DNA of 64,000 bases from Clostridia bacterium (GTDB lineage: Bacteria > Bacillota > Clostridia > UMGS1883 > UMGS1540), in NCBI GenBank assembly GCA_045533905.1, contig JAZSIR010000021.1:1-64000 (forward strand), given 5' to 3'. Under the pieces are notes generated by a model. It was not told the DNA's origin, ran no database searches, and worked only from the letters and a program-made list of their open reading frames with translations. Every line of letters starts with the position of its first letter. Within the stretch, counting starts at the first letter, position 1. A program made the translations under genes and the position numbers. Positions 52,325 through 64,000 of the stretch are shown piece by piece.

Positions 52325-52426
52325 ATGTCTTTGAAAAGTGTATCCATACGCATCGAAAAAGAAATGCTCGAAAGGCGAGCACTTTTTATTCTGTTTTCTC
52401 CGCTTCCGAGAATATATTCTCAATAA
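52325..52426 (+). pseudogene. Truncated ribbon-helix-helix (Arc-like) DNA-binding gene
   Basis: GGAGTGA RBS, then MSLKSVSIRIEKEMLER, after which the frame runs into a terminator-like hairpin and the antisense of the next gene. Confidence 0.5.
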
Positions 52427-53705
52427 TTCCCAAATCCCAACAAAGTCTTGATAAAACATATTTATCTCTTATATCCTTTGTGGCTTTAAAGGTTATTGGC
52501 AAAAGTTCTTCATCGAGTCCTATTTCCGCCATTGTTTTCGGAAGACTGGCCTTGTCAAAAAGATTTTCGAGTTCCGAAAACGCAGGCAGCTCCTCCTCGA
52601 TAATTTGCAAAATTGCATCCCACTTGGAAAGCAGTGTCCCAAGTCTTTTTCTGTGACTTTCCAAATTATATTTCTGTTCTTTCTCTTCGAGCGCAATCAT
52701 CGCTTCTGCACCTTTGCCGAGAAATTTTCTCAATGTTTCACTCCACGCCGCAAAATCAAACGCTTCCGCATACGCCAAAGCTTTTTGCCTTTCAGGCGTA
52801 CAGTTTTTTATTTTCTCATAAAGTTTAACGGCTATCAAAGTACCAACCGCACATTGAATGCCGTGAAATTCTACCGCCTCTCCGAATTCTACGCCACGCA
52901 TATCCCAAATATGAGAAAAATAATGCTCAACGCCGGAAGCAGGACGGGACATTCCCGCAAATTTCATAGCAGCTCCGCATATAACCAATCCCTCAAATAC
53001 TGCCTTGACCGCATTTTCATCCCGCTGCAAAAGCCCCTCGGCATTATCAACACACTTCTTTAAAGAACTTCTTACAAGCTCTGCTACCTTCTCGCAATAA
53101 TATTCGCCGTTTATAAGATGCGAGATGCGCCATTCACAAATGGAAACATACTTTGCAAGCATATCACCAAGTCCCGAAAGCATCATTTTTATGGGGGCAT
53201 TACACAAAATGTCCGTATCGCCAAAAATCACATCGGCACATTTACTGTCGAGAGAGGTTTTGAGGCCATCCATTGTCATAGAGGATGTTGCAGAGGCATA
53301 CCCGTCCATAGAGGGCGCTGTTGCCACTATGATATAGAGCCTTCCGGTAACGTTTGCAACAATTTTGCCAATATCGTTGATTACACCCGAGCCGACTGCC
53401 AAAATTAAATCACAATCTTTTTTGTAGTGCATAATGGCACTGCCGGTACTTGTTTCGTCCGGATGTAAAATTTCATCCCTGTAAATGTGGGAAAGTATCT
53501 TCGTTCCGGAAGAGGCAAGAATTTTACAAACCGCATCGCCTGCCGCGGTGAATGTGTTTTCATCCGCAATCAAAAACACTTTTTCCGCATGCAGTTTTTG
53601 TAACACCTGCGGCAATTGATGGATTACCCCTTTGCCGACTATCACTTCCGATTCGAATGTGTGTGCTTTTCCGCATGTACACTGTTTTGTATGTATCAAA
53701 TTCAT
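52386..53705 (-). CDS. sn-glycerol-1-phosphate dehydrogenase (AraM/EgsA family)
   Basis: AVGSGVINDIGK, ATAPSMDGYAS, GLGDMLAK, SRPASGVEHYFSH, HGIQ. Confidence 0.9.
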   Translation of the reverse strand: MNLIHTKQCTCGKAHTFESEVIVGKGVIHQLPQVLQKLHAEKVFLIADENTFTAAGDAVCKILASSGTKILSHIYRDEILHPDETSTGSAIMHYKKDCDLILAVGSGVINDIGKIVANVTGRLYIIVATAPSMDGYASATSSMTMDGLKTSLDSKCADVIFGDTDILCNAPIKMMLSGLGDMLAKYVSICEWRISHLINGEYYCEKVAELVRSSLKKCVDNAEGLLQRDENAVKAVFEGLVICGAAMKFAGMSRPASGVEHYFSHIWDMRGVEFGEAVEFHGIQCAVGTLIAVKLYEKIKNCTPERQKALAYAEAFDFAAWSETLRKFLGKGAEAMIALEEKEQKYNLESHRKRLGTLLSKWDAILQIIEEELPAFSELENLFDKASLPKTMAEIGLDEELLPITFKATKDIRDKYVLSRLCWDLGIIENIFSEAEKTE

Positions 53706-53816
53706 ATCATCACCAATTTAATTTTACCAAATATAGAGAGAATAATCAATACTTGAATATTATCTTGACAAAACAATCATCAATTGATTATAATAGTGAT
53801 TAAATAATAGAAACGG

Positions 53817-54524
53817 GTGATTATTTTGTCGATACATACTAGAGAAGAACTGTATATCAAACTCTTGGCGGAAAGAGAGCATACAGTTCGGGACCTGGCA
53901 AATAAACTTTTTGTGAGCGAACCTACGGTGCGGCGTGATATACTTGTTTTGGAAAAGAAGGATATTATCACACGCAAAAGAGGTAGGGTAAATCTCAAAA
54001 TAAATTCTGCTGATAAACGCATTCCGTTATTTATTCGCGATATGGAAAACAACCCATCTAAAAGGCAAATAGCGCTTAAGGCTTTATCTTACATTAAAGA
54101 TGGCGATACGATTATACTGGATGCCTCCACCACGGCCTACTGCCTGTTGCCGCATCTTGTAAATTTCAAAGAACTTTTCGTAATAACGAACGGCGCAAAA
54201 ACAGCTATTGACCTAGCGGCAATGGGGATCAAAACCATATGCACGGGCGGGGAGCTTACCGAAGAATCCTTTTCGTATGTCGGAACGGATGCCGAGAGCG
54301 TTTTAAGTCGCTATAATGCGGATGTAGCTTTTTTCTCCTGCAGAGGGATAACAGAGGATGGTTTTGTTACAGATAACTCTATTTTAGAAAATTCTATGCG
54401 AAAAATTATGATAAGGAATGCAAGAAAGAGTTACCTTCTTTGTGATAAAAGTAAGCTTGGAAAAACCTATCTGAATACACTTTGCCACAAAAATGAACTG
54501 GATGGCGTTATAACGGATACGTAA
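53817..54524 (+). CDS. DeoR-family transcriptional regulator
   Basis: VSEPTVRRD HTH, ILDASTT, ITNG, DKSK. Confidence 0.92.
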   Translation: MIILSIHTREELYIKLLAEREHTVRDLANKLFVSEPTVRRDILVLEKKDIITRKRGRVNLKINSADKRIPLFIRDMENNPSKRQIALKALSYIKDGDTIILDASTTAYCLLPHLVNFKELFVITNGAKTAIDLAAMGIKTICTGGELTEESFSYVGTDAESVLSRYNADVAFFSCRGITEDGFVTDNSILENSMRKIMIRNARKSYLLCDKSKLGKTYLNTLCHKNELDGVITDT

Positions 54525-54529
54525 TATAT

Positions 54530-54564
54530 AGGGCGTGCCTCACTATATTGAGGCACGCCCTTTT
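54530..54564. terminator. Terminator between the DeoR gene and spoIVB tail 1
   Basis: AGGGCGTGCCTCA-ctatat-TGAGGCACGCCCT followed by TTT. Confidence 0.85.
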
Positions 54565-54697
54565 ACTTATTTGTTTTTCCCACTTCCGAGAGCATATTTT
54601 CAATAAAAATCCCATACCCGCGCGTGGGGTCATTGACGAAAACGTGTGTTACAGCTCCAATGAGTTTGCCATTCTGAACGATTGGGGAGCCGCTCAT
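54563..54697 (-). pseudogene. spoIVB: spoIVB 3' fragment, copy 1 (44 aa)
   Basis: [44 protein letters not shown], the C-terminus of SpoIVB peptidase S55. Confidence 0.92.
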
Positions 54698-54700
54698 GAC

Positions 54701-54721
54701 TGTTGTCAATGGGGGACAACA
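54701..54721. repeat. Putative recombination site 1
   Basis: TGTTGTC-AATGGGG-GACAACA. Confidence 0.8.
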
Positions 54722-54767
54722 AATTTTGAGGAATTTTCAAATCCAAGTTATGTTATATGTACTTTTA

Positions 54768-55976
54768 TCAATCAACTACACAACCATTGGCATCCACCCA
54801 TTTTTTACTGTCTACGTCAACACAAATCAACAACTTATTTAAATCAGTATCGAAAATCTGCTGTCCAAAAGACGGATAATAGCTGAGTCTTTCTGCAGTG
54901 CTGCAAACAGTTTTGTGGGTCATATTGATTGTGCGAAAGCCTTTACCTGAGCCATTTTCAAAAAGTTTAAAATTGGTTTCGTTTGTATGATTCCAGTCAG
55001 GCTGAAGTGTATATTCAATTCTTCCGCAAAAAGCTCCCGGGTGAATTTCACGCATAACATCCCCGAGTTTTCCTCCGGGGGTTTGGGTAGCCAAACGTTC
55101 GATGTTAAAGCTTATCATAGAAACTTCCTGACCGCCGATTAGAATATTACCATCACGGCCATGGTCACCACATTGATTAAACAATGGTAAGTTCACATTT
55201 CTTTCGTCGCAACAGTTAATCATGGTGATAGGATGATTGTATCCACAATTAAAATCGTAGTTACCAAAAGTATAGCCATAAACATTATGTGCTGCCGCAC
55301 AATTTAACATAACAACATGTTCTCCGCCCACCTGAATTCCTTCATAGAAACCACCTGATGTAACATTGTCATAGCGAACAATAAAGTTATTGCTACCATC
55401 GGTCATTGTAAGTCCGATGCAGCCTTCTTTTGCCATATCTGTTACACCCAAATATGTATTATCACGCTTTCCGCGAAGTCTGACATTTTTCATCTGAACG
55501 CGGTCGCAACGACGCAAATCTATGCAGCGAACAGCTTTCTGATTATGCGCCAATGTCATAGTAATATTTTCGAGATTCAGAACCGCTCCGCTATATAAAC
55601 CTCTGTTTTTCCATTCGGTACGAAAAACAGAATATTCACCTTCTTCTATTTTAGAAAGTGCTTCCTCAGAAACATCAATCTGTACGCCCTCACGATTTTG
55701 TTCGAAGCTGAACGATTGTCCGATAATTGCAATTTCCTTATATAAAGCAGGTATCCTAATAGCTGCCATGGGTCCGCCATCTTCAAAATCATAAAAATCA
55801 TCTACACAGTAAACACCGTTCAAAAGATAAACATTCTTTCCTTCTTCTGCGGCAGTCTTAATAGCTTTGTTTATCACAAGTTCATCATTTTTCCCTGAAC
55901 AAACAAAATCAATGCCATCCTTTTCATTAAATTTTGAATTCGATGCAGCAACAGTTATAAAAGGTGAAAAACTCAT
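54768..55976 (-). CDS. Hypothetical beta-helix (pectin-lyase/tailspike-like) protein
   Basis: DELVINKAI...GKNVYLLNGVY N-cap, Gly/Asn-rich rungs, C-terminal GQQIFDTDLNK...WVDANG. Confidence 0.55.
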   Translation of the reverse strand: MSFSPFITVAASNSKFNEKDGIDFVCSGKNDELVINKAIKTAAEEGKNVYLLNGVYCVDDFYDFEDGGPMAAIRIPALYKEIAIIGQSFSFEQNREGVQIDVSEEALSKIEEGEYSVFRTEWKNRGLYSGAVLNLENITMTLAHNQKAVRCIDLRRCDRVQMKNVRLRGKRDNTYLGVTDMAKEGCIGLTMTDGSNNFIVRYDNVTSGGFYEGIQVGGEHVVMLNCAAAHNVYGYTFGNYDFNCGYNHPITMINCCDERNVNLPLFNQCGDHGRDGNILIGGQEVSMISFNIERLATQTPGGKLGDVMREIHPGAFCGRIEYTLQPDWNHTNETNFKLFENGSGKGFRTINMTHKTVCSTAERLSYYPSFGQQIFDTDLNKLLICVDVDSKKWVDANGCVVD

Positions 55977-56015
55977 AAAATCTACTCCTTTTTAATTTTT
56001 ATTCGGGTTAATACC

Positions 56016-56864
56016 TTAAATATTTAAAAATACTATGGATGCAAGTCCTGTTAAGAAACCTGCAAACTGTATTTTTGTCAGTTTTTCTTTATAAAATACT
56101 TTTGAAACAACATATGTAACAATAATTCCCCCTGCCGAAATCAGCGGAAACATAACGGATACAGCCATTGTTCCCGATAACACCATAACAAGCAAATTAA
56201 CAATACCATTCATAGCACCGGAAGCAACAGTAATAAACCGAGCATGATAAAAATTGCTTTTGAAATTATCTTTATTTGTTACCAAAGTGGCTACTGCAAA
56301 AATCAAAAACACAATTGCGAGAGAAATTATCATAAATTCATTTTTGTATTCACCGTCGAATTTAATTTGTTGCATTTTCTGAACGGTTGTACAAAGACCA
56401 TTGCCGGCAAACGAAAGAAAAACAAATAAAAGCCATTTTGGTGTAATAGGACACTTGTCATTATTCTTGTTCACAAGGAAAAGCGAAATCGCAAGCAATC
56501 CAAGACCAATTATAAAATATATGCTTATTGGTTCCCTGAGAAAAGCAATTCCGTAAAAGGTTGGAATCATAAGTGAATATGAAATCATAAGTGACGAAAG
56601 TGACAAAGAACCATTTGCAATAGCAAGCATACCAGATAGTGAAGCGGTTGAAAATGATAAGGCAAAGGCTATCGAATATGGAACAATCCCGGGATTCCAG
56701 CTAATATTCTTTGAAGTAACAAGAAAGAACATCATTGAAAAAAGCGCTGTAAGGGATAAAAAAAGATATGTACCATTTGTACCTGTCTTTTCTGTATAGA
56801 ATTTTTTAGCAATGCTCTGACCGGAAACGCCGGCTATTATAATTATCAAATATATAATGTTCAT
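56016..56864 (-). CDS. EamA/DMT-family membrane transporter
   Basis: About 10 hydrophobic helices in two repeats, ending FLREPI and FYKEKL. Confidence 0.8.
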   Translation of the reverse strand: MNIIYLIIIIAGVSGQSIAKKFYTEKTGTNGTYLFLSLTALFSMMFFLVTSKNISWNPGIVPYSIAFALSFSTASLSGMLAIANGSLSLSSLMISYSLMIPTFYGIAFLREPISIYFIIGLGLLAISLFLVNKNNDKCPITPKWLLFVFLSFAGNGLCTTVQKMQQIKFDGEYKNEFMIISLAIVFLIFAVATLVTNKDNFKSNFYHARFITVASGAMNGIVNLLVMVLSGTMAVSVMFPLISAGGIIVTYVVSKVFYKEKLTKIQFAGFLTGLASIVFLNI

Positions 56865-57021
56865 ACGTTATGGCTCTATTTTCATCTGATACTACAAACA
56901 ATCCCCATCAACTATATAAATTGTACCACTACATATTAATTTTTGTAAATAAATTATATTCTTTAAATATTGCAATATCTTCCCAACTATTATATAATAT
57001 TGTTTAGAGGAGGCGTTAAAA

Positions 57022-57828
57022 ATGATTATAAAATACAATACAGAAAAGTTGCGACGTATTATAACCGATATAACCACCTTGACTGGAATAAGCGTAGCCG
57101 TATTAGATACAGACTATAGCACCATAATAAGAGGACCACAGAGTAAAGAGTATTGCTCATTGCTGCAAACAATAGAAATTAAAAAAAAGCATTGCAAACA
57201 GTGTGATACAAGAATCTTAAACCGATGCCGTTCCTCTAAAAATTTGGAAAGTCACATATGCAGTGCGGGTCTTTATGATTCTGCAATGCCCATTATAAAA
57301 GACGATAACATCGTCGGATATGTCATAATGGGGCAGGTACGTTCTATGGACTCTCCTGCTCTGCCTAAATATTTACCTGATACAGATCCTCAAACACTTA
57401 AAAAGTTAAATAAAATCTATGAACAAACTCCATTTATTTCAAAAAATCAATTGGAAGCACTGTATGATCTTCTGCCTCATATTCTATTTGATAGTGCGAT
57501 TGAGTTTGTGTACGATCCTGTTGCAATTGATATACTTAAGTTTATTGATGCAAATTTGCAAGCGGATTTAAGTATAAAACAGCTATGTGAAAGATTTTAT
57601 ATATCAAAAAACCGATTATATGAAGTTTTTCGGAACAATCTAGGATGCACCGTTACAGGATATATTAACGAACAACGCATCAAGCAAGCAAAAGAATTAC
57701 TTAAACAATCAGACGATTCTATCTGTAATATTGCCGAAAAGGTAGGTATTTACAATTATACATATTTCTGTAAACTATTTAAAAAGCTCAGTGGAGTCAC
57801 ACCCACTGAATACAGAAAAAAGCCATAA
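57022..57828 (+). CDS. PocR-sensor AraC-family regulator
   Basis: YC...CKQCD...CSAGL...MGQ PocR domain plus AraC HTH. Confidence 0.9.
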   Translation: MIIKYNTEKLRRIITDITTLTGISVAVLDTDYSTIIRGPQSKEYCSLLQTIEIKKKHCKQCDTRILNRCRSSKNLESHICSAGLYDSAMPIIKDDNIVGYVIMGQVRSMDSPALPKYLPDTDPQTLKKLNKIYEQTPFISKNQLEALYDLLPHILFDSAIEFVYDPVAIDILKFIDANLQADLSIKQLCERFYISKNRLYEVFRNNLGCTVTGYINEQRIKQAKELLKQSDDSICNIAEKVGIYNYTYFCKLFKKLSGVTPTEYRKKP

Positions 57829-57842
57829 AAGGTTTACGTAAA

Positions 57843-57873
57843 AATGCTCACTTATGAAATATAAGTGAGCATT
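57843..57873. terminator. Terminator between the AraC gene and spoIVB tail 2
   Basis: AATGCTCACTTAT-gaaat-ATAAGTGAGCATT. Confidence 0.8.
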
Positions 57874-57877
57874 AATG

Positions 57878-58009
57878 TTATTTAATTTTCTCCGCTTCAG
57901 CCAGCATATTCTCTATAAATATCCCATATCCACGTGTCGGGTCATTTACAAAAACGTGTGTCACAGCTCCAATGAGTTTGCCATTCTGAACGATTGGGGA
58001 GCCGCTCAA
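57878..58009 (-). pseudogene. spoIVB: spoIVB 3' fragment, copy 2 (43 aa)
   Basis: (TTG)[42 protein letters not shown]. Confidence 0.92.
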
Positions 58010-58012
58010 GAC

Positions 58013-58033
58013 TGTTGTCAATAGGGGACAACA
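58013..58033. repeat. Putative recombination site 2
   Basis: TGTTGTC-AATAGGG-GACAACA. Confidence 0.8.
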
Positions 58034-58035
58034 AA

Positions 58036-60231
58036 TCAGATAAGTTTTTCTAACTCTGCCAGAATTCTATCGGCAATATTCTTCATCCCAATATCTCCGG
58101 GATGGTTTGCAACACCCTCGTGGCTAAATAATCCTATTGCTTTCATTTCATTAAGTTCACCCAGGTCTCCAAGTTCAATACAGGTCAAATTATTTTCTTT
58201 TGCATATTCTAAAATGATTTTATCACCGGGATGTTTCCAAAATCCTGTTGTTAATATAACTTTGGCCTTTAATGATTTGTTTAAATAGTCAAGCAGTTCT
58301 CCCAGTTCACGTTTGAATATTTCACAGTCAAATTCATTTTGCGGACAATTTTCAATAAAACGCATCACGATAATATCAGCATCAAAGCTGCGGGCTTCTT
58401 CAAAGAGATAATGTTTGGTTGAGCCATTTTTATATTCCATTTCCCATTCCGCAACCTGACAGATGCAAAACGCCGCATCGGCTGATTTTTCCGAAACCGC
58501 AGACATCACACGATGAACATAGTCGTTTTCGGGACAGGAAGCCGCCATTCCGCATTCGTTGTACCAGCCTATCTGCGGGCGGAAGCCGTGGAGTGTCATC
58601 GAATTTCCCACAAACATCACTCGTTTACCTTTGCCATTCAAATTAAAAAATCGAATATGCCCACTATTATTGAGTTGATGACCGGCACAAACCGTATTTT
58701 TCTGAAGTTGTTGGTATTCAGATGTTTTATAACAGATATTCTGCGTAAACTCTCCTGTAACGAATTGGTTCTCGTCAAAGTTTTTAAGAAGTTCTTGGTT
58801 CCAATACAAATTCTCAATCAATATATCTTTGGTTTGGTGGGTATCATCATAACCTTTGAAATATAGCGTTGGCTTTTGGCGACCAAAGAGGTGAATGTTA
58901 CTGAACAACATATTTCGATTGATGCCTCTGCGTGTGCCACCAGCAGAATACTCATGATGGAAACTGCTGACAATATGTATAAGATCAGGTGCATAATCTA
59001 AATTGGTGTTTTGATATGTTTCTGAATCTTTATTTTGAATAACACCTATTGGAATCACATCATCGTACTCTATATTTATATTTTTATACACCACATCATG
59101 CACATCGGCATAATCCACGTTGGAGCAGTCAAGTACATGACCGGTAACGTGTATGATGTTGCAGTTCTTAAAAACAATATTGCTTATTTCTTCCGCCCTT
59201 GTTTCTGCCCCGATTTCAAGACTTTTTCCCCAGTCGTTCCATATGGTGCAATTTTTTATAACTGTGTTCTTAAAAACATCGTAAGCTTTTCCTTTACGAT
59301 ACATTGCCTCTTTTACCGCTTTTTCAACATCATCTTCATGATAGCAATCAAAGCCTTTTACACAGATTGAATCATCAAAGGTTCGTAAAAAGCAATTATC
59401 TATAACAACATCTTCGCAATTGTGCATATCAATACCGTCTGAATTGTAACGCCAGCAACCAATAATTTTAACATTTGAAATATGCATATTTTTGCAACCG
59501 ATTGGTCTTATATTATAAACCAATGAATCGCGGATGGTGATGCCTTCAATTTTAATATTGTTACAATATTCAAGTTGAACTGTGTGCTCTCGTTTTGCAT
59601 TATTGACTGCCGAAATATTATTTTCTGCATTATACTCAAAAAGTATTTTCTCAGTGTTTTTACTGTTGTCAAGAATACCTCTGCCCAAAATTTTTATGTT
59701 TTCGGAATCTATTGATTTTACACAGGCATAAACCACCGCACCTTCGTCAATAAACAATGTCTGATTGCTTTTTAATACAATTTCTCCGGCATAGTGTTCA
59801 CCTTTGCCGAAATATATAACATTAGTATTGTTATAATCAATGTCATAGCAAGGTGTGGGATCAGAAAAAATATGAAGTGCATTATTTCTGCCATACGGCT
59901 CAACGGTAAAATAAGCAGGCTTTTCAAGAGTAAATGTGATTTTTCCGTCTTTGATTTCCGGTGTTATACCCAATGACAACGGGCGTATAATAACTTCCTC
60001 AAAGGGATTTTGAGGAATTATTTCAAAAGACACCGATTCATCTGAAGAAAGTGAAAGGAAATTAACAAGTTCGGTTTGAGCTTTACTACGCTGATGCCCC
60101 GGCCAGCGACGGTTAAAAGGGAATGCAGACACACGGGCAGTATCAAGTGTTACCGGTTGTCCGTTCACTTTAACCTTATAATTTTCTATGTGGTCTTTGG
60201 TTTGTGTTACAGGATAAATATTTATCGACAT
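58036..60231 (-). CDS. Beta-helix glycoside hydrolase (GH28-like) fused to a C-terminal SGNH hydrolase
   Basis: [29 protein letters not shown]; C-terminal FVGNSMT...NHPGDIGM. Confidence 0.78.
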
Positions 60232-60383
60232 ATCTTTGACTCCTTGTATTTTAGAATTACTATGACAATTATAATATTAAAGCAAGTAGAAAAATAGGTA
60301 ATTTTTTAATATTAAAGGTATATATTTATTGACATTTTTGAGGATGCAATATATAATAGTCGTTATAAAAACCCCAAAGGAGT

Positions 60384-61286
60384 TTGATATGTGTGTATGT
60401 TTATAAAATCAAAATAAATTGTTTGCCAAAACTAATATGGGCTTGCGAAGTTACTGTTGAAAACTATGAATGGAGAAATCGCAATAGCAAAGATGTGTTG
60501 GAAATTTCGTATTCAAAATTTGACACAAAATCTGTTACCCTTAATAACAATAACTTTCTACTGAAAAACAACACTCTATCCTGCATAGTGGCTGATGAAA
60601 ACCGTACAGCCTCCTGCAAATCGGGAAAGCCAATAACAATTGTATCAGTTGCTGTTAGTTTAAGTGATTTTAAATACCAACCATGCGAACTTGTTGAAGC
60701 TGACTTGAGTGATGAAACAGTTCTTATATTGCCTTTTTATTTGGAAGAGTTGCCAATTAATTATGAACTTGAAATAATAAAGAAACTTCATGAAATCATT
60801 AAACTATCTTCCGCTGATTCGGAAAACAGAAAGATTGCTTTAGCATCTGCATTCTTTAACCTGATATGTGAGATTGATAAAATAACACGAAATAATATCT
60901 GCAGCCAAAACAACAGCGTCAATTATTATGTAAAAAAAATTGATTACATTATCGAATCCAGATATAATGAGAAAATCACTCTCCAGTCAGTTGCATCAGA
61001 GTTGAATATATCACCGGTTTACCTGTCAACCATTTATAAAAGCATAACCGGTATAAATTTTTCGGAGCAACTTCTTATTGTGCGGATGAAACACGCAGAA
61101 AATTTATTGTTTGATCAAAATATTTCCACAACAAAGGTTGCAGAACTTTGCGGATTTTGCGATGAAAATTATTTCAGGAAAAGATTCAAACGTTTTTTTG
61201 GTATGAATGTAAGCGAGTGCAGAAAAATCAAAAACGGATTAACGCTCTACCACGAAAAACCTCAAAGAAAAAATGACAGCTGCTAA
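60384..61286 (+). CDS. AraC-family transcriptional regulator
   Basis: C-terminal ISPVYLS...VAELCGFCDENYF. Confidence 0.9.
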   Translation: MICVYVYKIKINCLPKLIWACEVTVENYEWRNRNSKDVLEISYSKFDTKSVTLNNNNFLLKNNTLSCIVADENRTASCKSGKPITIVSVAVSLSDFKYQPCELVEADLSDETVLILPFYLEELPINYELEIIKKLHEIIKLSSADSENRKIALASAFFNLICEIDKITRNNICSQNNSVNYYVKKIDYIIESRYNEKITLQSVASELNISPVYLSTIYKSITGINFSEQLLIVRMKHAENLLFDQNISTTKVAELCGFCDENYFRKRFKRFFGMNVSECRKIKNGLTLYHEKPQRKNDSC

Positions 61287-61305
61287 ATTTAGCGGCTGTC
61301 ATTTT
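61268..61305. terminator. Terminator between the AraC gene and spoIVB tail 3
   Basis: AAAATGACAGCTGCTAA...TTAGCGGCTGTCATTTT. Confidence 0.8.
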
Positions 61306-61308
61306 AAA

Positions 61309-61461
61309 TTAAAAATTTTCTGAATTCTTTTCTTCAATGCTTCGTGCAGCCGCTAACATATTTTCAATAAATATCCCATAACCTCTTGTTGGATCATTTA
61401 CAAATACGTGTGTCACAGCTCCCACAATTCGGCCATTTTGCAGGATGGGTGAACCAGACAC
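61309..61461 (-). pseudogene. spoIVB: spoIVB 3' fragment, copy 3 (50 aa)
   Basis: (GTG)[49 protein letters not shown]. Confidence 0.92.
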
Positions 61462-61464
61462 GAG

Positions 61465-61485
61465 TGTTGTCAATATGGGACAACA
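61465..61485. repeat. Putative recombination site 3
   Basis: TGTTGTC-AATATGG-GACAACA. Confidence 0.8.
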
Positions 61486-61499
61486 ATTTTTTATATTTT

Positions 61500-62309
61500 T
61501 TATAATTTACGCATTTTTCCGGGTGTTATTTTATAAACATTTTTAAAAGTGTTCGACATATGAGACTGTGAATAGAATCCGCATAGGTGTGAGATTTCGG
61601 AAATTGAAATATCCGTTGTGAGTAACATTTCTCGTACTCTTATCAATCTTTGTTTTGTAATATATTTATGTAGCGTTATCCCTTCGTTTTTTACAAAAAC
61701 TTCATTAAGATAATATGGATGATAGTGCAATTTATCTGAGATTTCCTTTATATTTACAGATATGTTATTTTCAACGATTTCTTTAATTTTTTCACATAGA
61801 GGTACTTTGTGTTGATTGTTTTCTTTGTTTCTCGACAACTTTAACAAAATTATATTCAAATACAAATTTTCTATATCTTGTTTTTTTGTGCTTTTTTTAC
61901 TTTCATTGTAAATGCTTTCTATATCGTTCCCTATTTCTTTTGCATTATTTACATATATTACATCAGAAAAAATATCTGGAATTTCAGCATTATACCGAAA
62001 TATAGTGTCATAATTAAACTCACCCGCTTTTTCCGGTACCATTACTCCTATATGCGAAAACTCTTGCGTAAAATCAAAGTTAACTGTATAAAATATTATG
62101 GTTTCATTTGAATGAATATGATAGGGAAACCCTGAAGGATAATAAATTAGAGTATTTTTACAAAGAGGGTATGTTTTATTGTTACATTCAAAAACACCAT
62201 TACCACTCAAAATATAAATCATACGGCAATCCCTCGCAATTACCATGTTATCTATAAAATATTTTGTTTTTGCAATATATCTTACAAAAGGCTCATAATA
62301 CAAAGGCAT
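61500..62309 (-). CDS. AraC-family transcriptional regulator
   Basis: Cupin IYILSGNG and [18 protein letters not shown]. Confidence 0.9.
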
Positions 62310-62418
62310 ACAACCAACTCATTTCTTTGTTTTTTGATAAAATAACTTCGTTATATGCATTGATTATAACATAATTAAATATTATAATCAAGAAAAATAA
62401 TAAAAGAAGGTGCTTTTT

Positions 62419-63999
62419 GTGAAAAATCCATTAATTACAATGTCAGCCGTTACAGGAAGGCCATCATTGAGTTTTGTCCAAAATTATATGAAATCTCTTA
62501 AGGAAAATGGTATTGAACAAGTTATGATTTACCCGAGGTCAGGATGTGAGCTTGAATATTTAAGCAACGACTGGTTTAAGACGGTAGAATACTTTTTAAA
62601 GTGTGCAAAGCGGTTGGATATGAACATATGGTTATATGATGATTTTAATTGGCCGTCAGGGGATGCGGGCGGAATGGTTTCAAAAAAATATATGTTGAAA
62701 TCAATTACAACAGTAGGGAAAAATATAGGTGAAATCAGTACATATTCAGAGCATAATGGTAAGATTTTCGGAATAAAATCTTTTCCCGATTTGCTGTCTT
62801 TTGATGCTGTTGATTACTTTATAAACATCACTCACGAGCAATATTATAGACATTTTAAAGAATATTTTGGAAACACAATAAAAGGTATTTTCACCGACGA
62901 GCCAAGCATTGGATATTGCTGCAACAATTCATCTGTGCCATATTATGAACAGCTCCCCGATGATTATAAAAGCTTGTGCGGAGATGACTTTTATGATGAT
63001 ATGGAGCTTGGCAGAGACAAGTTTTACGAAACCGTTATGCTTGCAGTGGCAAACAGGTTTAAAGCATGCTATGTTGATAAAATACGCAATTGGTGCGAGG
63101 AACACTCAATAGATATGTGTGGTCATATGATATATGATCACGAGCCTTGCGCTGCAACCCGAAATAACGGCAATTTATTGACAATGCTTTCGTCATTCTC
63201 TATTGCGGGAGTAGATGAAATTAACACCAATCTAAATGATTCCACTCTCCTTTCTCTTTTCGGTGCTGCCCAATATGCAAGAAAGGGTAATTATGCTATG
63301 GCAGAATTATTTGCATTAGGACCGTGTGATATGTCATATACATTAAGAAAAAGTATGATTTTTTATTCTGCCTGCTTCAAAATAAACCTTTACTTTCTGG
63401 CAGTTTCTCATATGGATATGAGAGGAAATACCGCAATACTTGATTATTTTAATGATTTCTCAATTTCTCAGCCGGATTTTTCAGGAATGAAGCTTTTGGC
63501 ACAAGAGGCACAGTTAGCGGCTGAATATGCAGATAAGGATTTTACACCCGATGTATATATTGAATATCCTTCAGAATTATGTGCCGGTAACTTGATGAAT
63601 AAAAATTTTAATACCAATATTTTTATAGCTCTTTTAAAACGACTTACCTACTATCAGATACAGTGGAAATTTATCGATAAAGGTGATGATACAAACAATA
63701 TTGAAGTAATCAGACTTACAAAGGATAATACCTTAAAATACGCACATATCACAACAACCGATATAGATGAAATATGCAAAGCCCTTGCACAAAAACCGCT
63801 TGTTATCAATATTAACGGTGAACTGTGTGAAAATATTTTTGTGCGAAAATTTGATGATGGCAGCTTTGTTGTAATTAATCTTGATGCCGCACCGTCAAAA
63901 TATATTATAAACCGCATTGATAAAGAGATTGACGGTTTTGGTGTAGTAACTGACAAGGATGTAATTCCTACCGAGTATAAAAAAGTAAAAGCTGAAATT
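62419..63999 (+). CDS. GH106-like (alpha-L-rhamnosidase-like) glycoside hydrolase, 3'-truncated by the window
   Basis: Not in the ORF track. GTG start behind GAAGGTG; YPRSG, YLSNDW, WLYDDFNWPSG, THEQY, GIFTDEP, WCEEH. Confidence 0.7.
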   Translation, partial: MKNPLITMSAVTGRPSLSFVQNYMKSLKENGIEQVMIYPRSGCELEYLSNDWFKTVEYFLKCAKRLDMNIWLYDDFNWPSGDAGGMVSKKYMLKSITTVGKNIGEISTYSEHNGKIFGIKSFPDLLSFDAVDYFINITHEQYYRHFKEYFGNTIKGIFTDEPSIGYCCNNSSVPYYEQLPDDYKSLCGDDFYDDMELGRDKFYETVMLAVANRFKACYVDKIRNWCEEHSIDMCGHMIYDHEPCAATRNNGNLLTMLSSFSIAGVDEINTNLNDSTLLSLFGAAQYARKGNYAMAELFALGPCDMSYTLRKSMIFYSACFKINLYFLAVSHMDMRGNTAILDYFNDFSISQPDFSGMKLLAQEAQLAAEYADKDFTPDVYIEYPSELCAGNLMNKNFNTNIFIALLKRLTYYQIQWKFIDKGDDTNNIEVIRLTKDNTLKYAHITTTDIDEICKALAQKPLVININGELCENIFVRKFDDGSFVVINLDAAPSKYIINRIDKEIDGFGVVTDKDVIPTEYKKVKAEI

Positions 64000-64000
64000 C

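Follow-up and report, generated by a model that had tools for sequence, protein, structure and literature searches.

The closest described relatives of the locus presented here are the staphylococcal cassette chromosomes (SCC, SCCmec), inserted at rlmH by the recombinases CcrAB or CcrC, and the cis-mobilizable elements (CIMEs) found with elements of the ICESt1/ICESt3 type. The locus belongs to a Clostridia bacterium (assembly GCA_045533905.1; 1.57 Mb in 23 contigs, 95.5% complete) and begins in the first 64 kb of the 109-kb contig JAZSIR010000021.1; this stretch of 64,000 nucleotides is referred to below as the window. We read it, at a probability of roughly 0.55, as five cassettes without a recombinase gene, stacked at a site of the large-serine-recombinase (LSR) family inside the sporulation gene spoIVB and carried there as hitch-hikers on a conjugative element that shares the site.

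SCC and the spoIVB array have in common the LSRs (predicted for spoIVB) and degenerate inverted half-sites that flank a central crossover dinucleotide. In both, insertion is near the 3′ end of a conserved gene and leaves it intact, and tandem composites are formed in which some members lack recombinase genes; the target is spoIVB rather than rlmH. For SCC composites, one account takes the outermost element as the oldest and records att-bounded elements without recombinase genes (PMC13739063). Unlike SCC, which needs only a few codons inside its att site, spoIVB cassettes need a gene end of 43–50 codons that includes the SGSP motif. The full-size partner also differs, being a three-recombinase conjugative element that has no replacement end and breaks the gene, as do the hosts (gut and rumen Clostridia), the target (a sporulation protease gene) and the cargo (mostly regulator-plus-enzyme modules and defense-like genes).

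CIMEs are described (PMC5704250) as recombinase-less, att-bounded DNA lying in tandem at the target gene's end and co-mobilized with a functional conjugative element through the outer att sites. Such cis-mobilization, by the choice of an outer att site, is the mechanism we infer for the spoIVB cassettes. In CIME systems, however, the recombinases are tyrosine recombinases and the incoming element enters an attR that contains the gene end; CIMEs also keep both attL and attR, whereas spoIVB cassettes keep only attR-type sites and have as their left border the attB-type functional end of a gene. The array would work like SCC and CIMEs but be a member of neither, because target, predicted enzymes and left border differ.

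Sporulation genes known to carry intervening elements include sigK (skin), spsM (SPbeta), spoVFB (vfbin), spoVR (vrin), gerE (gin) and yabG (yin); the known targets are described as mother-cell-expressed genes (PMC4191935), and spoIVB is named in neither of two papers on such elements (PMC4191935, PMC10747680). Some spoIVB loci in relatives resemble these in that a sporulation gene is split by a serine-recombinase element whose precise excision at a TG dinucleotide would rejoin the pieces; the array described here differs in that it does not interrupt spoIVB. Expression of spoIVB takes place in the forespore, the compartment that passes its genome on, and so one may ask how, or whether, hosts with a split spoIVB sporulate.

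With integrons, the array shares an ordered, co-oriented series of recombinase-less cassettes that have a conserved end site and would grow beside a fixed site, and the first-pass annotation of the window had called it integron-like. The enzymology does not bear this out: there is no IntI, attI or attC, the site is apparently a double-strand serine-recombinase half-site, and the cassettes are 1.3–7.9 kb long with their own regulators and terminators. Tycheposons and the tRNA islands of Prochlorococcus (bioRxiv 10.1101/2020.12.28.424599) are alike in that successive integrations push older elements inward, leave partial copies of the target and bring niche-adaptive cargo, and differ in having an integrase of their own (mostly tyrosine) and tRNA genes as targets. 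A full-text literature search, with most subscription journals and supplements outside it, revealed no paper that names spoIVB as a target of integration or connects it with a recombinase, an attB or an inserted element. The array is a real and widespread form of site-specific cassette accretion that apparently has not been described before.

If this is true, a single 50-bp site in a sporulation gene would be a common safe harbor for the exchange of modules among uncultured gut and rumen Clostridia, namely AraC-type regulators with an enzyme, glycyl radical enzymes with their activases, glycoside hydrolases, transporters, and toxin–antitoxin or defense-like sets. With the missing gene end, SGSP included, supplied by the passenger, an integrase site that otherwise breaks the gene would have become harmless, and gut bacteria would have an undescribed way to collect metabolic and defense genes. 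The signature of P arm (the element-side half-site), TG and SGSP tail would delimit recently exchanged cargo in metagenome-assembled genomes to the base, and spoIVB would join the sporulation genes targeted by serine-recombinase elements. Recombinases with well-defined attP and attB could also be put to use as tools in Clostridia in which engineering is difficult.

Five cassettes behind an intact spoIVB

The inverted repeat TGTTGTC-N7-GACAACA occurs three times in the window (54701-54721, 58013-58033 and 61465-61485; 0.00 expected from 100 shuffles) and a fourth time to the right of it (contig 65792-65812), with no further exact copy in a search of the whole 1.57-Mb genome. On the minus strand each copy is followed on its 3′ side by three nucleotides, an NTG codon and an open SpoIVB C-terminus of 43–50 codons. 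In the window, the open reading frames (ORFs) of the displaced tails (54563-54709, 57878-58021 and 61309-61473) match positions 175-210 of the Pfam family S55 with 66–71 bits. With the tails numbered from the most distal, T1, to that of the live gene, T5, hairpin or terminator-like structures lie 3′ of T1, T2 and the live-gene tail, and one is visible in the alignment after T3. An intact, co-oriented spoIVB heads the array at contig 69805-71004 (399 aa, with a PDZ domain and a full S55 match of 258 bits). In total the contig has four displaced SpoIVB tails, the remnant of a fifth and one intact spoIVB, all co-oriented; the array itself comprises five cassettes and the remnant at contig ~52386-69936.

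Much of the first-pass annotation is thereby upheld. Its three co-oriented junctions, spaced 3312 and 3452 bp apart, are there as described, and their make-up of repeat, three nucleotides, intact tail and terminator is confirmed by the ORFs, the S55 matches and the hairpins. The array does continue to the right, where the fourth repeat stands beside a further tail (contig 65657-65788), and one full-length spoIVB does head it; the displaced tails all come with the repeat and lie downstream of spoIVB instead of being scattered singly.

The live gene can be aligned to the four displaced tails only from the NTG codon onward and lacks the repeat, in line with the earlier proposal that the junction is a crossover at this codon. 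GC content is 0.596 in the spoIVB body and 0.379 in the last 132 nt, and at third codon positions (GC3) the figures are 0.708 and 0.341. The live spoIVB is chimeric, its GC-rich body coming from the host and its AT-rich tail, with the SGSP motif, from a cassette, and the suggestion that each cassette carries its own spoIVB tail holds even for the tail now in use. SGSP holds what we take to be the catalytic serine of SpoIVB. The cut falls about 130 bp from the stop codon, just before SGSP, and therefore every cassette must carry the 43–50 codon gene end that includes it. A skin-like interruption of the coding sequence is absent from this spoIVB, which is intact, and was seen only with the large elements of G032 and G041-G044 (G, L and C numbers are our handles for genomes, loci and contigs).

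Judged by its sequence, the live gene has the form of an unoccupied attB (B-TG-B′). The older tails lie downstream, each behind a P arm, and therefore each junction has the form of an attR (P-TG-B′). No attL (B-P′) was found in the array in a search of all loci and the genome with a 22-nt P′ motif (up to 4 mismatches); the motif is present at the attL of element-bearing genomes, with extra copies near the right end of some elements.

A cassette is one unit. It begins at the crossover TG with a replacement SpoIVB tail, which is followed by a terminator, the cargo and, last, a P arm. From the distal end to the live gene, the features are as follows.

52362-52384: terminator-like hairpin after T0
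52386..52419, minus strand: T0, what is left of an older displaced tail, joined in frame to the Fe-ADH gene at its 3′ end
52386..54697, minus strand: cassette 1, the most distal, its own P arm lost by deletion
52386-53705, minus strand: Fe-ADH_2 dehydrogenase of cassette 1 (Pfam)
53817-54524, plus strand: DeoR regulator of cassette 1 (Pfam)
54563-54697, minus strand: tail T1 of cassette 1
54698..54727, minus strand: P arm, right end of cassette 2, containing the repeat at 54701-54721; crossover TG at 54695-54696
54698..58009, minus strand: cassette 2 (tail T2 at 57878-58009, cargo, P arm)
54768-55976, minus strand: 402-aa protein of cassette 2, no Pfam family
56016-56864, minus strand: EamA transporter of cassette 2
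57022-57828, plus strand: PocR-AraC regulator of cassette 2
58010..58039, minus strand: P arm, right end of cassette 3, with the repeat at 58013-58033
58010..61461, minus strand: cassette 3 (tail T3 at 61309-61461, cargo, P arm)
58036-60231, minus strand: 731-aa GH28-like protein of cassette 3
60384-61286, plus strand: AraC regulator of cassette 3
61462..61491, minus strand: P arm, right end of cassette 4, with the repeat at 61465-61485
61462..64000, minus strand: cassette 4, the part within the window
61500-62309: AraC regulator of cassette 4
62410 to contig 64713, plus strand: 767-aa protein of cassette 4, no Pfam family
Contig 64701-65216, beyond the window: YgjV of cassette 4
Contig 65657-65788: tail T4 of cassette 4
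Contig 65792-65812: P arm with repeat
Contig 65797-66678: glycyl-radical-enzyme activase of cassette 5
Contig 66678-68876: glycyl radical enzyme of cassette 5
Contig 69011-69781: AraC regulator of cassette 5
Contig 69805-69936: live tail T5
Contig 69937-71004: spoIVB body

The cassettes have a GC content of 0.33–0.41 (cassette 1 at 0.41) against 0.50 in the host flanks, so that the cargo is indeed AT-rich, as first remarked. Cassette 1 is about 72% identical in nucleotide sequence to the second cassette of L081 (L081_c2) and to the terminal segment of L098. The array had been taken to extend from 52386, a border that now needs correction: this position is the stop of the Fe-ADH gene, whose last ~11 codons are the remnant of a further tail, the last 34 nt matching the ends of T5, T4 and T2 at 24–26 of 34 positions in register. 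At locus L081 a P arm and a complete tail come after the homologous Fe-ADH gene. From the fusion and this intact counterpart it follows that the oldest P arm, and with it most of the oldest tail, was lost by deletion. Elsewhere in the array, the P arm overlaps the ends of cargo ORFs: the activase has its stop codon within the repeat (contig 65797-65812), and the GH28-like gene has its own in the A-rich outer P arm (window 58036-58039).

No tyrosine or serine recombinase gene was found in a contig-wide search, and no DDE transposase or relaxase among the array's own ORFs, the only part of the window checked for these two. The absence of an integrase, transposase or relaxase reported for the window therefore stands, for transposases and relaxases within the array ORFs, and the recombinase that had been expected nearby is not on the contig. 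An assembly artefact was ruled out, as the tails differ at many synonymous positions and the architecture recurs in dozens of independent assemblies.

Nature of the inverted repeat

Where the first-pass annotation went wrong is the nature of the inverted repeat. By the evidence of sequence comparison this is no self-standing recombination core but lies wholly inside a predicted P arm, the element-side half-site of an LSR attP. The first base of the crossover codon varies at 81 P-arm sites (GTG 62, CTG 9, ATG 6, TTG 2, CTA 1, GTA 1), against ATG in 37 of 37 full genes (80 sources), and therefore this base travels with the left arm. The exchanged dinucleotide is TG in 79 of the 81 P-arm sites and in all 37 full genes. 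In four genomes an attP was rebuilt by joining the right end of the element, taken from attR, to its left end, taken from attL; each is an imperfect palindrome centered exactly on TG, with 16–18 of 30 positions symmetric. The P arms at element-type and cassette-type loci make up one sequence family. The rebuilt palindrome has the form of a serine-integrase attP, and recombination at these sites is predicted; LSR domains (Resolvase, Recombinase and zinc-ribbon) beside an att site were found in relatives only.

It is very improbable that the 7-7-7 repeat is itself the functional site, whether as a single-stranded DNA hairpin (attC-like or IS200/IS605-like) or as the core of a tyrosine recombinase with its crossover in the spacer. 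Such a reading would draw on the perfect 7-bp inverted repeat with a 7-nt spacer that precedes all four displaced tails of the genome and on the IS200-type Y1 protein encoded by one cassette of G037. In 39 of the 81 sites, however, the right arm is GACATCA with the left arm unchanged (the left arm was fixed in the search pattern), and the hairpin is rejected because one pair of the repeat is here broken without compensation. The spacer is conserved in sequence, and the whole repeat is mirrored across TG in the rebuilt attP. Had the crossover been in the spacer, the live gene would still have half of the repeat. The tyrosine core is rejected because no such half is there; the tyrosine recombinase genes of the genome (five PF00589 matches) are, moreover, all on other contigs. 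Against an IS200/IS605-like mechanism, the Y1 gene occurs in 1 of 52 cassettes, the genome itself has only a 24-bit fragment with a stop codon, and the left end of a cassette is coding sequence and not a subterminal hairpin.

The Y1 protein of G037 (276 aa; L017:12370-13200, minus strand) is encoded directly behind spoIVB and is the sole transposase-like gene product in the 52 cassettes. Some loci have extra inverted copies of the P′-type motif (TATAATAGGGACAACA-like) 100–200 bp upstream of the P arm (L058:3109-3300, L050, L063:7809-8000, L115, L119 and L122); some elements, and one cassette (L063), have them at their right end. They may be accessory binding sites or a vestige of an element end. 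In L140, at ~80-140, a nearly perfect palindrome of the P′-type arm, attP-like in appearance, lies about 180 bp upstream of a site with P arm and tail.

Elements and cassettes in related genomes

In 12 of 80 loci with flanks, two or three serine-recombinase genes end 30–200 bp before a P arm, in the same orientation. G032, from the same order, has a spoIVB that breaks off after the crossover codon, where foreign DNA beginning with ParA takes over, and on another contig three LSR genes that end just before the repeat, TG and the gene tail (L020:745-5724; L019:6059-7240). Of 5 further element genomes searched, 4 share with G032 a spoIVB whose S55 match is divided at profile position 175/176, and no second intact spoIVB was found in these four. 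In G042, body and tail of spoIVB are 72.4 kb apart on one contig (G042:C1:106723-179711, L170-L173); the 72-kb element between them encodes a coupling protein of a type IV secretion system, a TraG-type ATPase, RepA_N, sortases and pilin, ParAB, SSB and three recombinases, and its ORFs have no Pfam match to a capsid or terminase. We read it as an integrative conjugative element. The conjugative three-recombinase elements bring no replacement end and break spoIVB.

A census with a pattern of P arm, TG and SGSP codons, run on contigs from one genome per species, found at least 121 matching stretches, which according to database records come from gut, rumen or faecal Clostridia; 40 of 41 short loci are bona fide sites. 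In the order of the window's host the site is present in 14 of 87 genomes (0 with a reversed-pattern control), and this genome has the most, four. Among 80 re-oriented sources, 34 have a full spoIVB on the same strand, lying 1.3–7.9 kb upstream; the displaced tails number up to four. The sources yield 52 complete cassettes, delimited at the TG codon on both sides and 1313–7858 bp long (median 3838 bp). None of the 145 ORFs in 42 of these belongs to a recombinase, transposase or relaxase family, and the remaining 10 also have none apart from the IS200-type gene in G037. By tally, an AraC-type regulator is present in 27 of the 52, toxin–antitoxin or defense-like sets in 12, and a glycyl radical enzyme with its activase in 8.

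Cassette content and order vary among relatives, as had been anticipated, and the same cassette is found at different positions in different species. The first cassette of G013 is 93% identical to the first of L094 (1-3388 of 3391 bp, beginning at the tail's first base and reaching the P arm) and 99.0% identical to a segment in third position in L069; cassette 2 of L044 and cassette 1 of L066 are 97.4% identical, and L082 and L092 share 99.2%. Since the same cassette recurs in different species, among different neighbors and at different positions, the moving unit must be tail, cargo and P arm. Degenerate P arms were seen four times, each at the most distal site of its own array, which fits insertion next to the gene and ageing outward, and thus the early suggestion that newcomers push older cassettes away from spoIVB. 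Five first-position cassettes (G006_c1, L059_c1, L101_c1, L085_c1 and L056_c1) share a left module of tail, Phd-like protein and KilA-N protein at 93–97% identity. The module makes up the first 1.1–2.2 kb, and the rest differs (Roc-COR, TPR, DUF2326, DUF6273), which makes cassettes mosaics in which the left end is conserved.

Public sequence data give a further view of occurrence. In 20 runs from 13 studies, 0.31–0.45 of the array's sampled words are present, and contigs ~96–99% identical to cassette 5 (L163:14300-18330), which speak to presence only, were found in four runs, each from a different study, of animal gut or faecal metagenomes. When the contigs of four runs were compared with the 20-kb locus they proved short, with sides of the tail joint of only 21–29 letters at 90% likeness, which makes them unreliable. 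The alignment to six genus-mates is confined to spoIVB and the gene upstream of it (64–77% identity), with nothing downstream, a divergence too great for empty-site synteny.

Possible routes into the array

The route we favor is hitch-hiking with the conjugative element. The element would integrate into the attB-like live spoIVB and would sometimes excise through a more distal attR, taking the proximal cassette or cassettes along, while an older tail restores spoIVB. Element and cassettes would then integrate in a new host, where excision through the element's own proximal attR would deposit the cassette; its tail would restore spoIVB, and the host's old tail would be pushed downstream. Only the canonical reactions, attP with attB and attL with attR, would be needed for this.

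Several points weigh against the favored route. Canonical reactions do not explain the origin of the first cassette, which starts with a tail instead of a P′ arm. No cognate three-recombinase element is found in the 95.5%-complete genome, where the best match to the G032 trio, on contig C8, has 29–32% identity. An element with a cassette and a second P arm and tail within 8 kb was seen in 0 of 12 element-type loci; this is only weak evidence because about 1.7 would be expected (12 of 85 genomes of the order carry cassettes, ~14%). Neither an excised circle nor an empty site came out of the short-contig and genus-mate comparisons, both of which are uninformative. The genome has four to five LSR genes on other contigs, at C11:26734-30900 (two or three clustered), C8:36636-38357 and C7:2549-3295, none with more than 32% identity to the G032 trio. 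The C8 recombinase was considered as a dedicated enzyme and set aside as not specific: 43 of the order's 87 genomes have homologues, and 12 of the 14 site-bearing genomes are among them.

Capture in trans, in the manner of an integron, is a possible though doubtful alternative: a cassette circle closed at a joint of P arm, TG and tail would be inserted into the live B-TG-tail by a recombinase encoded elsewhere. It would account for the recurrence across arrays of a unit that is exactly tail, cargo and P arm, for cassettes without a recombinase, for arrays in genomes that have no element in spoIVB, and for the same lack of element-plus-cassette composites in the 12 element-type loci. The reaction would, however, have to be an exchange of attR-type with attB-type sites, which is its own reverse; to our knowledge, serine integrases do not normally catalyze it. 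Nor does any serine recombinase co-vary with the arrays, the C8 homologues occurring with or without sites, and the circle joint was not detected in the uninformative short-contig comparison. The fuller version, in which gut Clostridia keep a serine-recombinase platform for gene capture, with small circles carrying a spare SpoIVB end, recombinases acting in trans and this non-canonical exchange, letting cells gain, lose and shuffle regulator-plus-enzyme and defense modules at one safe site without losing sporulation, can be held only tentatively and is rather unlikely.

It is a good deal less probable that the cassettes are inert relics of full-size elements that integrated repeatedly and decayed in place, with any present spread vertical or by homologous recombination. 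Decay is visible, in that the T0 remnant is fused to the Fe-ADH gene and distal positions have truncated tails and degenerate P arms, and some cassette right ends keep non-coding sequence like that of an element right end (L063 compared with L058). In-place decay is nevertheless unlikely because it would leave an attL (B-P′) and a broken spoIVB, and here no P′ arm is in the array or near the gene, which is intact. The 52 complete cassettes, moreover, are delimited at TG on both sides with no recombinase remnant in any, and near-identical ones (97–99%) occur in different species, positions and neighborhoods. The break in composition falls at the crossover codon, and not within the gene body as homologous exchange would give.

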